This document shows, in pieces, positions 39,514 through 44,888 of a DNA stretch of 64,000 bases. The notes beneath the pieces were generated by a model, which was not told the origin of the DNA, ran no database searches, and saw only the letters and a list, made by a program, of their open reading frames with translations. Each line of letters starts with the position of its first letter. Within the stretch, counting starts at the first letter, position 1. Source of the stretch: Oscillospiraceae bacterium (GTDB lineage Bacteria; Bacillota; Clostridia; UBA1212); contig SVJA01000003.1 of assembly GCA_015069195.1 (NCBI GenBank), positions 129,838 to 193,837 on the forward strand, given 5' to 3'. The translations under genes and the position numbers were made by a program.

Positions 39514-40965
39514 ATGAGTGATGGTGTAGCACTTCCTACAAGTGACAGAACGACGGTCAATGAGAAACCGGCAGATATATGGGTTTGCCCCGAATTTAAA
39601 GTATCAGGTGTGTTTTCTTCTCATATGGTACTCCAGCGAGACAGGGAAATTTCCGTGTGGGGCTTTTCAACTGCAGTGGGCAGCGTGGTTACTGCAGAAT
39701 TTATGGGAGATACTGTAACGGCGCTTGTAGATAGCGACAACAAGTGGCTCGTAAAACTTCCTGCAAAGGCATATACAAGAGTGCCTCAAACTATGAAAAT
39801 ATACGATGATAAGGGTCACGAGACAATTTTTGAAGATATTCTTATAGGTGATGTGTGGCTTGTCGGCGGTCAGTCAAATGCAGAACTTCCGCTTGCACCA
39901 TGTATGTGTATGACTCCGGATATTGTTTTTAACGAAAATGATAATTTCAGATTATTTATGCAGACGCAGAATTATGTCTACACGCATCAGGAGTATTGCA
40001 ACTATCCGCAGAGAGATATAGTTAATCCGGATTGGCAATGGAAACGCCCGTCTGAGGGAGCGTCACTTGAGTTTTCTGCAATCGGTTGGTATTTTGCACA
40101 AGAACTGACAAAACATATCGATATCCCTATCGGAATGATAAATGTTTCTGCAGGCGGCGCCTGTATAAGAGAACTTGTTCCCGAAGAACTTGCGTACTCT
40201 ATGGGCTACACATTCGGTGCAAACGTCAGGGAGGCCGGCTACTACAATGCATTGATAAATCCTTTCATAGGACTTCAATTCAAAGCAATGATTTTCTTCC
40301 AGGGTGAAAGCGAAGGCGGCGACAAAACTTTTGCAATGCGCTATGCCGACGAACTTTCTCAGCTCGTTGCAAACGAAAGAGAACTGTTTGGTTTTGATTT
40401 CCCGTTTTATAACATGCAGCTTACGGAATATTCCGATCCCGGAGCGTTTCATTTCCCTTGGCACTACATCGTGCGTGTTCAGCAGTTTGACGCGTTAAAA
40501 ATTATTCCCGACTCGGCTTTGATAGTAACTATGGATTACGGCAACCTCGAGGGCTACGATGATATTCATTCACCGCTGAAAAAGCCTCTTTCGGACCGTG
40601 CTGTGTTGCTTGCTCTGGCAAGAGAGTACGGTATAGGAAAGGAAGAAGAAGTTTCATCCCCGATGCCTGTAAAGGCTGAATTGTCTGCTGACAAAAAACA
40701 GGTGGTTATCACTTTTGAAAACGTGCGTGAAGATCTCACAGTCAAGGGCGCATCGTTAAATGGTTTTTGCCTTGGCGATTATGAAAACAGAATTTCCGTC
40801 GAAGCAATCATTTCCGGCAAAAATACAGTTACCGTAAATGTCCCCGAAGGTTGCGAATTTGATTCAATCGGTTACGCTGTCCAAAACAGTATCACAGGTG
40901 ATTTCGCAAACCTCAGAAATTCAATCGGTATGCCTTGCCCGGCGTTTATGGTTGGGGTAGAGTAA
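39514..40965 (+). CDS. sialate O-acetylesterase-like (SASA/SGNH) carbohydrate esterase
   Basis: WLVGGQSNAE motif; ATG 39514 after AAAGGA. Confidence 0.75.
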   Translation: MSDGVALPTSDRTTVNEKPADIWVCPEFKVSGVFSSHMVLQRDREISVWGFSTAVGSVVTAEFMGDTVTALVDSDNKWLVKLPAKAYTRVPQTMKIYDDKGHETIFEDILIGDVWLVGGQSNAELPLAPCMCMTPDIVFNENDNFRLFMQTQNYVYTHQEYCNYPQRDIVNPDWQWKRPSEGASLEFSAIGWYFAQELTKHIDIPIGMINVSAGGACIRELVPEELAYSMGYTFGANVREAGYYNALINPFIGLQFKAMIFFQGESEGGDKTFAMRYADELSQLVANERELFGFDFPFYNMQLTEYSDPGAFHFPWHYIVRVQQFDALKIIPDSALIVTMDYGNLEGYDDIHSPLKKPLSDRAVLLALAREYGIGKEEEVSSPMPVKAELSADKKQVVITFENVREDLTVKGASLNGFCLGDYENRISVEAIISGKNTVTVNVPEGCEFDSIGYAVQNSITGDFANLRNSIGMPCPAFMVGVE

Positions 40966-41021
40966 GCGGAAAATAATTAATTCTATATTTACAGAATCGT
41001 TTTGATCTTAAAACACTACGC

Positions 41022-41062
41022 ATTCAAAAAGTTGAACACTTTTTGAATGCGTAGTTTGTATC
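41022..41062. terminator. bidirectional terminator, perfect 16-bp stem
   Basis: CTACGCATTCAAAAAG-ttgaaca-CTTTTTGAATGCGTAG, T-rich flank. Confidence 0.65.
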
Positions 41063-41157
41063 AATTTTGAGTTTTTATTATGAATTATCATGCATTTTTT
41101 GATACGGGTTGCACCCGGTTGCAAAAGTTGCATTTTTGATTTAGGGCTGCATTGGAG

Positions 41158-41430
41158 TTACTTGAGTATTTCGTGAGGCTGAGGATGCTCTATTTTGTCG
41201 GTATCCCTTTCTCTTGAAAAGCTTAATTCAACAAATTCCATGAGATCGCTGTTAAATTTCCAATGAGAATCGGCAAACCAATGGTTCATAAGCGTTGTGT
41301 ATTTGGAAATTAACGAGTGGACAGCTGAAAGGGAGAAAAGATTTGCCATAGCACCAATATGTTTTTCAAACCACACTTTGCGAGTGTCTTCTATAGAATC
41401 GTATTGGTAATCCGTATTTTCTTTATACAT
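41158..41430 (-). CDS. hypothetical small protein (90 aa), stop-start coupled to upstream 115-aa ORF
   Basis: ATG 41430 immediately follows TAG of upstream ORF in same frame. Confidence 0.5.
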   Translation of the reverse strand: MYKENTDYQYDSIEDTRKVWFEKHIGAMANLFSLSAVHSLISKYTTLMNHWFADSHWKFNSDLMEFVELSFSRERDTDKIEHPQPHEILK

Positions 41431-41778
41431 CTAATGTCCGTTAACCGCATTTGCTCTTACATAGCGCCATTTTTGCGAATTACTTTCTCTGTGAATCAGC
41501 TCATATTTTTGTGCACACATTTTGGTTATTTCTTCGATAACCTTAAAGAAGAGTTCGTCTGTACTTATTGCTTGCGCAATAGTTGTTCTTCTACCGAAAT
41601 CTGTTTCGGCGGTTATACGCAGTCCCTCAATTCGACAATACATATTAAATCCCTGAGATGCATTATCAACTATTTCTTGAGAAAAATATGATGCTAATTC
41701 AACTTTGGCCGATTCAATCTGCTCAGGCAAATCGCTTGGCTTTTTCGCTTTTTTAGTAAACAAGTCAAAGAATCTCAT
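41431..41778 (-). CDS. hypothetical small protein (115 aa)
   Basis: ORF with GGGG SD-like upstream; no recognisable family. Confidence 0.55.
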   Translation of the reverse strand: MRFFDLFTKKAKKPSDLPEQIESAKVELASYFSQEIVDNASQGFNMYCRIEGLRITAETDFGRRTTIAQAISTDELFFKVIEEITKMCAQKYELIHRESNSQKWRYVRANAVNGH

Positions 41779-41806
41779 ACTCTATACCCCAATAATAGTT
41801 TTTATT

Positions 41807-41917
41807 ATTATACCACTGCTAAAAATCATTATACCACTGCTAAAAATCATTGCAATGCATCACGATGAAACTATTCTTTTTGACAATGAAATTATTCTCT
41901 CACAATGAAATTAACCT
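41807..41917 (-). promoter_or_regulatory. promoter/operator: TTGCAA-16-TGgTATAAT, tandemly duplicated 21-bp unit carrying extended -10, plus three 12-bp direct repeats (CACAATGAAATT-like)
   Basis: Read on minus strand upstream of 41778 gene. Confidence 0.5.
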
Positions 41918-42081
41918 CTTATTCCCAAGTGTGTAAAAGCCTTATGCCGCAAGGGGGTTCGGTTATAGACAAAGCACGATGATTTCGTATCAAAACTATA
42001 GTGATAATATGGTCGAAGTATAGTGACTCAAACATTATTTATAGTATTTATCTTTCAATCTAAAAAATAACTGTAGAACTA

Positions 42082-42633
42082 CTAAAGTAATCTTAATATT
42101 TCTTCTTCTGACCACAGTTCGTTTGGGAAAATCGAGATATCATCTTTGTGTTTCCTGATAATACGAATTGGTTCTTCTGTGTTGTCGTAGACATGCATAA
42201 TGTCACAAAGGTTCATTAAATGTTTAATATTTTTCAATGATTTGTCATAACGGTTTCGTATTTTGTCTTCATCGACATTATGTCCGCCGAGTGCTACTCT
42301 TGCTGCAACTCGGGCAACATTAACAGATGGATTTACTGTAAGAACAAAAATACATTTTATGAAATATCCCTCTGCTTTTGCTTTCTCTAAAATATCAAGT
42401 TTATAATGAGAGGAGAGTACTGTTTCAAATGTAAAGTCTTCTTTTTTTGCTATAGATTGATAACGCATCTTATCTGCAAGGACAGCAGATTCTTCGTTAC
42501 TCATTCCTGTCGTGTGTGATATATCGTCTGCGTTGGTATATGTTCCGACAATATCAAGAAATTGTGTGATGGTACTTTTGCCCGAACCGTTTGGACCGGC
42601 AAAAACAAGCAACATGGGCTTTTTATCCGACAT
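42082..42633 (-). CDS. zeta-toxin/AAA_33-like P-loop kinase (183 aa)
   Basis: Walker A FAGPNGSGKST; ...RVALGGHNVDEDKIRNRY; ATG 42633 overlaps upstream gene by 11 nt. Confidence 0.7.
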   Translation of the reverse strand: MSDKKPMLLVFAGPNGSGKSTITQFLDIVGTYTNADDISHTTGMSNEESAVLADKMRYQSIAKKEDFTFETVLSSHYKLDILEKAKAEGYFIKCIFVLTVNPSVNVARVAARVALGGHNVDEDKIRNRYDKSLKNIKHLMNLCDIMHVYDNTEEPIRIIRKHKDDISIFPNELWSEEEILRLL

Positions 42634-42856
42634 AAGTTTTCTTACCGTCCTCTGTTTCAATATAAGCCTTTTGTTTTACTCGATCATATCTGGCAATAGG
42701 TTTTCTACAAGTTTTTGCTTTGTGAATAGCCGATTTTACAGCCTCTTTTGCGCGAGTGTCCATTTCCTCTTCGTTTTTGGAAAACATTTCACTCGTATTA
42801 TCCGCTGATACAACAGTTATTGATCGATTGTCGGTCAATTTAATTGTTTTATTCAT
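42623..42856 (-). CDS. small (77 aa) protein, putative antitoxin/regulator partner of kinase
   Basis: GGAGGA RBS; overlaps kinase start (ATGTCGGATAA). Confidence 0.6.
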   Translation of the reverse strand: MNKTIKLTDNRSITVVSADNTSEMFSKNEEEMDTRAKEAVKSAIHKAKTCRKPIARYDRVKQKAYIETEDGKKTYVG

Positions 42857-42942
42857 AGCTATTCCTCCAATGATAGATTACGTTGAATATATCAACACAT
42901 ATAGTGTACTATATTTTACGAAGATATTCAATCATAGGTACA

Positions 42943-43214
42943 ATTCAAAAATCTGATATCATGCCAATTTCACCTTGATTTCTCCGCTAATAATATCGAA
43001 AAAACCTCACTGAATAAAATTTAAAAATTCGATATCGAGCGAATTACACCTTTTACTTTGGTGAAAACAATCGAAAAAGGGACTCACGAAAAAATTCAAA
43101 AATTTGATATCGGGCAGATTACCTCTTTCGTGCTTTGCTGGAACCTTCGAAAAAACGATCAGGGGTAGGAATTTCAAAATCGGATACCGGGCCGATTTTA
43201 ATTCCTACCCCCTG
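42943..43214. repeat. degenerate ~75-bp tandem repeat x3.5, each with GATATC-centred palindromic core
   Basis: Cores at 42943, 43023, 43098, 43172; last unit contains 12-bp inverted repeat GGGGTAGGAATT/AATTCCTACCCC. Confidence 0.7.
43151..43205 (-). terminator. terminator-like hairpin immediately downstream of fhs
   Basis: 12-bp stem, then TGATCGTTTTTTCG on minus strand. Confidence 0.45.
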
Positions 43215-43223
43215 TTGTTTTTA

Positions 43224-44888
43224 TCAGAACAATCCACTTATCACGCCGTCTGCATCAACGTCGATTTTCTCGGCTGCCGGTACTTTCGGAAGACCGGGCA
43301 TTGTCATAATTTCGCCTGTGAGAGCTACGATGAAGCCTGCACCTGCTGAAATTTTTACGTTGCGAACAGTAACCGTGAAGTTTTCCGGAGCACAAATCTT
43401 TGTAGCATCGTCAGAGAAGCTGTACTGTGTTTTTGCCATACAGATTGGCAAGTTGCCGAATCCGTTTGCTTCGAGCTGGGCAATTTGCTTCTTTGCTTGT
43501 GCGGTGAATGCTGCGCCGCTGCCGCGGTAGATTCGTTTAACGATGGTGTCGATTTTGTTTTCGATTGTATCGTCAAGGCCGTAGCTGAATTCAAATGTGC
43601 TCGGTGTTTCGCAAAGTCTTACAACCTCTTGTGCGAGTTCTATGGCGCCGTTGCCGCCTTCTGCCCAGACATTTGACAAACATACGTTAACGCCTAATTT
43701 ACGGCATTTTTCAGCGATGAGAGCTATTTCTGCGTCTGTGTCGGTTGGGAAACGATTGATAGCAACAACTGCGGGGAGTTTGTATACATCTTTTATATTT
43801 GAAACGTGTCTTAAGAGGTTCGGCATACCTGCTGCAAGAGCCTCCAAGTCTTCACCGCCGAGCTCTGTTTTGGGAACACCGCCGTGCATTTTGAGAGCAC
43901 GAACCGTTGCTACCACAACAACTGCCGACGGTTTGAGTCCGCCGAAACGGCACTTTATATCAAGGAACTTCTGCGCACCGAGGTCTGCGCCGAAACCGGC
44001 TTCTGTTACTGTATAATCTGCAAGCTTCATAGCCATTTTTGTTGCAATCATTGAGTTACAGCCGTGTGCGATGTTTGCGAAAGGTCCGCCGTGAACGAAT
44101 GCCGGTGTACCTTCCAAAGTCTGAACGAGGTTCGGTTTGATAGCGTCCTTGAGGAGTGCTGTCATTGCACCGTGAGCATTGAGCTGACCTGCAGTAACCG
44201 GTTTTTCGTCATAAGTGTAGCCGACGATAATTTTTGAAAGTCTTTCCTTGAGGTCGGTGATTGACGAAGCAAGACAGAGAACAGCCATAATTTCAGATGC
44301 AACGGTGATATCGTATCCGTCCTCTCTCGGAACGCCGTTTACACGGCCGCCGAGACCGTCAGTTACGAAACGAAGCTGTCTGTCGTTCATATCCACACAA
44401 CGCTTCCATGTGATTCTGCGAGGGTCAATATTGAGGGCGTTGCCCTGATAAATGTGGTTGTCGAGCATTGCTGCAAGAAGGTTGTTTGCGGCCCCGATTG
44501 CGTGGAAGTCGCCTGTAAAGTGAAGATTGATGTCCTCCATAGGAACAACCTGTGCGTAGCCGCCGCCTGCAGCACCGCCTTTTACGCCAAAAACAGGGCC
44601 GAGTGAAGGCTCTCTGAGTGCGGCAATAACATTCTTTCCGATTTTATTAAGACCGTCTGCAAGGCCGATAGAAGTCGTTGTTTTGCCTTCGCCTGCAGGG
44701 GTAGGGGTGATGGCTGTAACCAAAATGAGTTTGCCGTCTTTTTTGTCGCTGTTTAAAAGGCTGAGATCAACTTTTGCCTTGTATTTTCCGTATTGTTCGA
44801 GATTATCCTCGGGAATACCTGCCTTTGCGGCAATTTCCGTAATATTTTTCATTTGTACCGACTGTGCAATTTCAATATCGCTTTTCAT
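43224..44888 (-). CDS. fhs: formate--tetrahydrofolate ligase
   Basis: FTHFS family along full length. Confidence 0.95.

Follow-up and report, generated by a model that had tools for sequence, protein, structure and literature searches.

A chromosomal gene pair of an Oscillospiraceae bacterium, encoding a short zeta-like kinase and an unannotated small protein, as a probable type II toxin-antitoxin module

Introduction

Among the described systems, those closest to the gene pair reported here are epsilon/zeta of pSM19035 and PezA/PezT of Streptococcus pneumoniae, in both of which the antitoxin gene lies immediately upstream of the toxin gene in the same operon. The pair is located in a stretch of 64,000 nucleotides (nt) from an Oscillospiraceae bacterium (assembly GCA_015069195.1, contig SVJA01000003.1, positions 129,838 to 193,837), to which we refer throughout as the window. 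It consists of an open reading frame (ORF) of 77 amino acids (aa) followed by the gene for a P-loop kinase of 183 aa, both on the minus strand of the window. The kinase shares with zeta and PezT the Pfam family, the P-loop kinase fold and counterparts of K46, E116 and R158, and the small gene occupies the place of the antitoxin gene; unlike those systems, the kinase is short and lacks the GTXR motif, and there is no third gene of the Omega type. The partner proteins also differ: while epsilon is a three-helix bundle and PezA is of the HTH type, the 77-aa protein is predicted to consist of a beta-hairpin, a helix and a beta-sheet, and has no Epsilon_antitox or HTH_3 match. Our conclusion is that this pair is probably a chromosomal type II toxin-antitoxin (TA) module, in which the family of the toxin is known and the domain of the antitoxin is unannotated.

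A second point of reference is AvrRxo1-ORF1/ORF2 of Xanthomonas, in which a zeta-related kinase that phosphorylates NAD is restrained by a small adjacent partner. In structure the kinase model matches AvrRxo1-ORF1 best (4z8q, E 4e-7, TM-score 0.72 over the query); this protein differs in being a larger secreted effector with ~14% sequence identity, and the partner proteins have no detectable similarity.

A third comparison is with PezAT(Mtb), the Rv0366c-Rv0367c pair of Mycobacterium tuberculosis, in which experiments established that Rv0366c is toxic and that the partner encoded upstream neutralises it (PMC6362051). Rv0366c is a short zeta-like protein with an N-terminal P-loop, Asn34/Asp36, a Glu, an Arg with a His six residues apart, and no GTXR (PMC6362051); judging by this published description, the window kinase shares both the residue pattern and the absence of GTXR. 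It is these short, 'non-canonical' zeta-like toxins that the window kinase resembles most, and in the literature that we found PezT(Mtb) is the one among them with experimental data. Its antitoxin, Rv0367c, has a ribbon-helix-helix (RHH) fold and belongs to the Pfam family ParD_like (PMC10532202), and the pair is reported mainly from Corynebacteriales, whereas the window partner belongs to an unrelated, unnamed family of gut and rumen Clostridia. Most PezT/zeta homologues are without a known antitoxin, and the non-canonical members are almost unstudied (PMC10532202).

The same cassette is present in a cultured organism, on the megaplasmid pCY360 of Butyrivibrio proteoclasticus B316 (WP_013282918.1 and WP_013282917.1). 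There the small protein (77 aa) is annotated 'hypothetical protein', the kinase (184 aa, 69% identical to that of the window) is annotated 'zeta toxin family protein', and the two genes overlap by 11 nt. That copy differs in residing on a megaplasmid rather than on a chromosome, and is annotated by homology only, with no characterisation found in the literature. We also found no literature joining 'zeta toxin' with COG4185, and zeta toxins are not mentioned in the NetFlax preprint or in Makarova 2009. The predicted antitoxin is outside the families described for zeta toxins, which are epsilon, HTH-PezA, ng_epsilon1 and the ParD_like RHH, and is publicly 'hypothetical'.

Results

Layout of the gene pair

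The elements that define the pair are the following.

42623..42856, minus strand: small ORF (predicted antitoxin), ATG start, 77 aa, C-terminus ...KTYVG-TAA.
42863-42868, minus strand: Shine-Dalgarno sequence GGAGGA, 6 nt 5' of the small-ORF ATG; GGAGG is kept in relatives.
42082..42633, minus strand: kinase (predicted toxin), 183 aa, with its ATG at 42631-42633, within the last codons of the small ORF.
42623..42633, minus strand: 11-nt stop/start overlap ATGTCGGATAA, read in the sequence; translational coupling is proposed.

The 77-aa ORF with its GGAGGA ribosome-binding site and the overlap ATGTCGGATAA had been pointed out in a preliminary description of the locus, and both are borne out on the minus strand. 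An ORF listing carries the kinase frame on to a TTG at 42660, which would make a protein of 192 aa; the homologues begin at the ATG. The nearest sequence that resembles a Shine-Dalgarno element for the kinase is a GAGGA 14 nt 5' of this ATG, and since this sole candidate is poorly spaced, translation of the kinase coupled to that of the upstream gene fits the layout.

Pairing, overlap and decay in homologous loci

Two scans for homologous loci were carried out, one anchored on the partner in one genome per GTDB species, the other anchored on the kinase in metagenomes. Each gave 80 loci; in the second, the kinases share 44-76% identity with that of the window. Partner alignment A1 was used for finding loci in place of the diverse alignment A2, which was too variable for this purpose. 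Counts of overlap and conservation refer to 107 intact pairs from two independent collections.

A stop/start overlap is present in 104 of the 107 pairs (11 nt in 55, 8 nt in 23, 14-29 nt in 26) and missing in 3; given this recurrence, the arrangement seen in the window is not due to chance. In all 107 pairs the kinase is better conserved than the partner, with a mean identity to the window proteins of 61% vs 38%; a toxin more conserved than its antitoxin is typical of TA pairs (PMC10532202). There is no third conserved gene beside the pair in the homologous loci.

The partner-anchored loci are nearly all from gut or rumen Clostridia (Oscillospiraceae, Ruminococcus, Lachnospiraceae), with some from Selenomonas and Anaerovibrio. 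An intact kinase gene lies 3' of the small gene in 50 of the 80, while at least 10 of the 80 have a truncated or internally deleted kinase beside an intact partner (loci L013, L016, L030, L044, L050, L064, L070, L074, L080 and L085), the remnant in L074 carrying an insertion sequence. Another 14 of the 80 are without any kinase remnant, and a few others are cut by contig ends. Among the loci with no kinase remnant are orphan small genes amid housekeeping genes, flanked by pyrH-like and frr-like genes (L045, L047) or upstream of an rpsJ-like gene (L051, L060), which suggests that such copies are domesticated or leftover antitoxin genes. In three others of the 14 loci (L025, at 1488-2075, L026 and L027) an intact small gene is followed by a 108-aa nucleotidyltransferase of the MNT type (Pfam NTP_transf_2, 51.5 bits), with no kinase.

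From the side of the kinase the association is tighter. A match to the hidden Markov model (HMM) of the small family stands directly upstream in 62 of the 80 kinase-anchored loci, and in 2 others the small gene is followed by a kinase that runs off the contig; the remaining ones include two that are degraded and three at contig edges. Every informative locus has a partner candidate upstream except L095 (840-1466), where an ABC_tran match extends up to the Walker A motif and a Zeta_toxin match follows, so that this single kinase without an upstream partner is probably a chimera, joined at the shared P-loop by recombination or in assembly. We had considered the apparently partnerless kinase loci as evidence against obligatory pairing, and rejected this view when partners fused to RelB or MazE domains, or the chimera, were found in them. 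At orthologous loci, then, the partner stands upstream of essentially every related kinase. The preliminary description had recognised a type II TA arrangement in the window from the two overlapping genes, and the comparative data (overlap, pairing, and decay that strikes the kinase and spares the partner) support it.

The flanks of the pair vary, with an ars operon in L001, PP2C, SLFN, DUF4143 and IS66 genes in L003-L006, and fhs plus ORFs without assigned identity in the window. In addition, 22 loci are on IMG/VR viral contigs, mostly with the partner, and more distant relatives of the kinase occur on 474 plasmids. The pair is inherited as a unit across these varied contexts, mobile elements included, as the flanks of L001-L006, pCY360 and the viral contigs exemplify.

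The kinase belongs to the zeta family and lacks GTXR

The kinase passes the Pfam Zeta_toxin profile (PF06414) with 42.8 bits against a gathering cut-off of 22.3 (E 5.3e-11, in two stretches, the best of which places kinase residues 37-152 on profile positions 68-188 of 199). Its homologues fill more than 4,392 clusters; the best 120 have identities of 74-100% and lengths of 178-206 aa, and all carry PF06414; those with a name are called either 'predicted ABC-type ATPase' or 'zeta toxin family protein'. A metagenome-assembled genome of Ruminococcaceae/Oscillospiraceae has a record of an identical protein. Scans of NCBIfam, PADLOC and PHROGs with the kinase returned sub-threshold, generic P-loop similarities and nothing else. 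In particular, the kinase does not cluster with housekeeping kinases: the best of these NCBIfam models, dTMP kinase, scores 19.5 bits against a cut-off of 83.25, and those of guanylate, adenylate and uridine kinase 13-15 bits against cut-offs of 160-223, so that dTMP, guanylate and adenylate kinase together span 13-20 bits vs 83-223.

The predicted fold agrees with the Pfam assignment. The AlphaFold2 (AF2) model has a mean local confidence (pLDDT) of 89.5 and a global one (pTM) of 0.83, and its top Foldseek matches in the PDB are 4z8q, 2p5t, 3q8x and 1gvn (E 4e-7 to 2e-6); its closest folds are AvrRxo1-ORF1, PezT and zeta, with ng_zeta1 lower down. Other routes were less productive: single-sequence and profile searches of the PDB with the kinase gave P-loop noise and a spurious PPR match, and hhalign of a shallow kinase profile against zeta aligned the P-loop alone.

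Because hhalign was limited to the P-loop, active-site residues were mapped with a MAFFT alignment of pSM19035 zeta, the window kinase and 20 diverse members of its family. For zeta we used a sequence that we take to be the complete protein of 287 aa, of which residues 1-272 are 100% identical to annotated zeta toxins on Enterococcus plasmids. Against this length the 183-aa kinase is indeed much shorter than zeta, as the preliminary description had it, and the Walker A motif FAGPNGSGKST (residues 11-21) and the block RVAARVALGGHNVDEDKIRNRY, which it had read in the 183-aa protein, are both present. The mapped residues are listed below.

42571..42597, minus strand: Walker A GPNGSGKST, residues 13-21, from the translation; the K19 codon (42577-42579) aligns with zeta K46.
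42526..42528, minus strand: D36, probable catalytic Asp, counterpart of zeta D67 (which deprotonates the substrate) and Rv0366c D36, from its position and the description of Rv0366c (PMC6362051).
42424..42426, minus strand: E70, counterpart of zeta E116 (nucleotide binding), by MAFFT against the verified zeta; invariant in the family alignment.
42298..42300, minus strand: R112, counterpart of zeta R158 (catalysis, antitoxin contact), by MAFFT; invariant in the family alignment.

In all 21 aligned family members E70 and R112 share the columns of zeta E116 and R158, and zeta T118 aligns with kinase T71. MAFFT placed a gap, not D36, under zeta D67; N34 and D36 are invariant in the family alignment and D36 follows beta-strand 31-33 of the AF2 model, so that D36 is likely, by position, to be the counterpart of D67. 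A zeta-type fold is combined with preserved counterparts of K46, E116 and R158.

The UDP-GlcNAc-binding motif GTXR, which comes after the conserved Glu in the UDP-GlcNAc kinase subgroup (zeta, PezT, EzeT), is a different matter. It is not conserved in the kinase, in which T-V-L-S comes after E70 and no Gly is present; the column of zeta R120 is occupied by L73 in all family members. The comparison with zeta/PezT-like UDP-GlcNAc kinases made in the preliminary description is thus upheld with respect to the family (Pfam, fold) and fails with respect to the UDP-GlcNAc motif, and because of this the label 'UDP-GlcNAc kinase' should not be assumed.

The 77-aa partner

Searches with the 77-aa protein came back empty from Pfam, NCBIfam, PADLOC and the PDB, and gave a single, weak match in PHROGs, to a 'transcriptional regulator' family (E 0.037). 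Its relatives form 44 close clusters, and a profile search of 1.84 billion representatives recovered 272 clusters at 50% identity, with lengths of 45-172 aa among the 150 listed. None of 38 family members gave a convincing match in Pfam, and nothing was found when the partner profile was run against the PDB. These searches agree with an earlier remark that the protein carries no epsilon, Phd or AbrB signature.

The AF2 model of the partner (pLDDT 79.8) consists of a beta-hairpin (residues 2-16), a linker, a helix (27-49) and three strands (54-75). Foldseek returned nothing below E = 1 for this model in the PDB, and therefore no likeness of the partner to epsilon, PezA, ng_epsilon1 or AvrRxo1-ORF2 is detectable. 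One part of the protein, and no other, is conserved across the family, and we propose that this core is the kinase-binding module.

42629..42778, minus strand: conserved core of the partner, residues 27-76, with a helix EMDxRAxxAVKxAIxKAK, then PIAxYDxxxKxAYxExxDGxxxYV.

The core is found in other settings. Partners of 62-66 aa (L100-L114, for example L101:15-317) are the core alone, a helix and a beta-hairpin, and are paired with kinases ~50-55% identical to the window kinase. Partners of 111-117 aa (L118, L122, L128, L131 and L152), which belong unambiguously to the small family (HMM E 1e-12 to 1e-16), are a RelB/DinJ RHH domain followed by the same core; they score 26-44 bits against a cut-off of 22.4 with Pfam RelB and 61.5 bits against 45.65 with TIGR02384. 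Nine loci missed by the HMM have an upstream ORF of ~100-115 aa with an N-terminal RelB RHH domain, or a MazE/AbrB domain in L134, in each case above the Pfam cut-offs; eight of these nine ORFs end in DxxTGxLxxxYxDGRVEYV, like the C-terminus of the 77-aa protein, and the ninth (L135) stops before the motif.

Since the core occurs both alone and behind RelB domains, it is the C-terminal module that defines the family. Relatives of the partner resemble RelB/DinJ- and MazE-type antitoxins in carrying the N-terminal domains of those proteins ahead of the shared core or its hairpin, and type II antitoxins are commonly built in this way from two parts, with DNA-binding at the N-terminus; the window partner itself has at its N-terminus a 16-residue beta-hairpin instead, which matches neither family. 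DNA-binding N-terminal domains have been swapped ahead of a shared C-terminal module. According to Leplae et al. (PMC3141249), type II antitoxins have their toxin-binding part at the C-terminus.

Two further observations concern the partner. In L144 (2324-3043) an antitoxin-like C-terminal motif (…AVAARRDYVPPFSAVYFDSETGMLKRRFMDG…) is in frame with a zeta-like kinase in a single chain of 239 aa, an arrangement reminiscent of EzeT; it is one case, and could be an artefact of sequencing or decay. Distant zeta-family proteins of 303-312 aa are encoded on Xylella pXF64-HB (L196:1753-2900) and on a Yersinia massiliensis plasmid (L197:1750-2879), the Xylella one with a C-terminal KfrB domain, by genes that are overlapped by 4 nt by upstream ORFs of 70-73 aa. 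In the products of these small ORFs a comparable helix precedes a hairpin pattern of the form 'DG…FP(D/N)G', and they may belong to the same partner superfamily.

Promoter region and surroundings

An alignment of 11 upstream regions from unrelated neighbourhoods identifies a probable promoter 5' of the small gene, whose -35 TTGAATA and -10 region are kept across differing genomic contexts.

42926..42931, minus strand: probable -35 box TTGAAT; TTGAATA is invariant in the alignment.
42903..42908, minus strand: probable -10 box TACACT, 17 nt downstream of the -35 box; relatives have TATAAT at the aligned position.
42899..42914, unstranded: palindrome ATATAGT-AC-ACTATAT over the -10 box, from an inverted-repeat scan; candidate operator.

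The -10 box of the window is degenerate (4 of 6 consensus positions) and was not called by a simple promoter scan; its assignment by homology is probable. A reading of the palindrome as an operator is speculative, because the palindrome is not kept in relatives.

Upstream of the promoter, the intergenic DNA that separates fhs from the cassette carries three copies of an 18-nt motif GATATCRRATTTTTRAAT on the minus strand (42943-42960, 43019-43036 and 43094-43111), 75-76 nt apart; none would be expected by chance. The copies are part of longer imperfect direct repeats of roughly 59 nt. We rejected the triple repeat GATATCRRATTTTTRAAT as a component of the cassette, as it was seen only in loci of the same species and does not accompany the cassette elsewhere.

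The cassette sits in a stretch of the window with 32-38% GC, flanked by DNA with 42-50% GC, and is surrounded by genes of metabolism (fhs, purL, a SASA esterase, azlCD) together with two small ORFs without assigned identity. The latter abut each other on the minus strand directly 3' of the kinase gene, still within the low-GC stretch, and encode 115 aa (41431..41778) and 90 aa (41158..41430); neither has a match in Pfam or NCBIfam. Upstream of them there are a tandem 21-nt repeat (41804-41845), which overlaps a promoter-like TTGCAA-16-TATAAT, and a ~20-nt repeat in three copies (41862-41919), and the two ORFs may constitute a second small two-gene unit. Between the 90-aa ORF and the convergent SASA-esterase gene is an inverted repeat (41015-41055) with perfect arms of 18 bp and a loop of 5 nt. 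It is probably a bidirectional terminator, and it gave rise to spurious miRNA-family matches in Rfam; an Rfam search of 40900-43300 gave nothing credible.

Discussion

The results can be combined in a model that borrows its later steps from characterised systems. The two genes are probably transcribed as one message from the promoter of the cassette. Translation of the kinase would be coupled to that of the partner and lower, leaving the partner in excess. By analogy with epsilon and PezA acting on zeta and PezT, the C-terminal core of the partner (helix and small beta-sheet) would bind the kinase and block its ATP/substrate site. The partner would be the more labile of the two proteins, and its loss or degradation would free the kinase. 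The free kinase would use ATP, through K19, D36, E70 and R112, to phosphorylate an essential small molecule, and growth would stop; that it is growth-inhibitory we infer from zeta, PezT, ng_zeta1 and Rv0366c. Because GTXR is missing, the substrate is probably not bound in the way UDP-GlcNAc is bound in zeta.

A number of points weigh against this interpretation. Toxicity, binding and neutralisation are attributed to the pair by analogy, the experimental support coming from other systems. The fold of the kinase is also near that of polynucleotide kinases, a bacterial one ranking closely behind the zeta-type toxins in Foldseek, and sequence searches of the PDB with the kinase do not reach zeta toxins. 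The pTM of the partner model is low (0.34), which leaves its tertiary arrangement uncertain, and the link between the 77-aa family and the most divergent partners fused to RelB or MazE domains is weak (hhalign probability 65%, E 5.8e-5, 24 columns). The 77-aa protein has no DNA-binding domain recognisable in Pfam or NCBIfam and the palindrome over the -10 box is not conserved, and for these reasons classical autoregulation is unsupported here. Finally, the cassette is fixed at one chromosomal site in all sampled genomes of the window species, and hence is not visibly mobile at present.

The cell may use the cassette for the maintenance of an element or against phages, and it is possible, though less likely than not, that the pair has been selected for abortive-infection defence against phages, with infection depleting or displacing the labile partner and the kinase arresting the cell. 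Such a role is compatible with the module being a TA pair. It would fit the occurrence of cassette copies on contigs classed as viral, and of gene types frequent in defence islands (SLFN/AlbA_2, DUF4143 ATPase, IS66, SUKH immunity, MazE-like) next to some homologous loci; PADLOC, on the other hand, reports generic P-loop matches for the kinase, and in the window the cassette has metabolic genes and two small ORFs of no assigned identity for neighbours.

We regard as very unlikely that the kinase is a harmless metabolic or salvage enzyme with a regulatory or chaperone subunit, rather than half of a TA pair. The weak likeness to guanylate and dTMP kinases, the proximity of the fold to polynucleotide and adenylate kinases, and the stability of the locus in the window species could be cited in its favour. 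Set against these are housekeeping-model scores far below the cut-offs, a patchy distribution in shifting neighbourhoods that include plasmids and viral contigs, kinase genes that decay beside intact partner genes, and partner relatives that bear RelB and MazE antitoxin domains. That the small protein is an Omega-like transcriptional regulator of the operon and nothing more, the kinase being controlled otherwise or its antitoxin encoded elsewhere, is hardly credible, because for all the DNA-binding N-terminal domains of its relatives and its weak PHROG match what the family conserves is the C-terminal core rather than a DNA-binding domain, the shortest partners (62-66 aa) have nothing beyond this core, and no third conserved gene accompanies the pair.

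Within the TA interpretation, we lean slightly towards the view that the ~50-residue core is a dedicated, unannotated domain for neutralising zeta-type kinases, which has come to stand behind four or more kinds of N-terminus (nothing at all, a short beta-hairpin, a RelB RHH domain, a MazE domain) and in one possible instance is fused to the kinase, and whose short GTXR-less kinases may use a non-classical substrate.

These findings do not establish a new principle, as they add one further type of antitoxin to a known toxin family. They do offer, in the cassette and its relatives, a concrete candidate antitoxin domain for one large clade of short kinases of the zeta-like type, which is frequent among Clostridia of gut and rumen and occurs on plasmids and viral contigs as well, and in which the natural domain-swap variants mark the part of the partner that should bind the toxin. 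The compact 183-aa kinase is an entry point for seeking a substrate other than UDP-GlcNAc, and annotators of genomes could give a name to the 'hypothetical protein' encoded ahead of these 'zeta toxin family proteins'.

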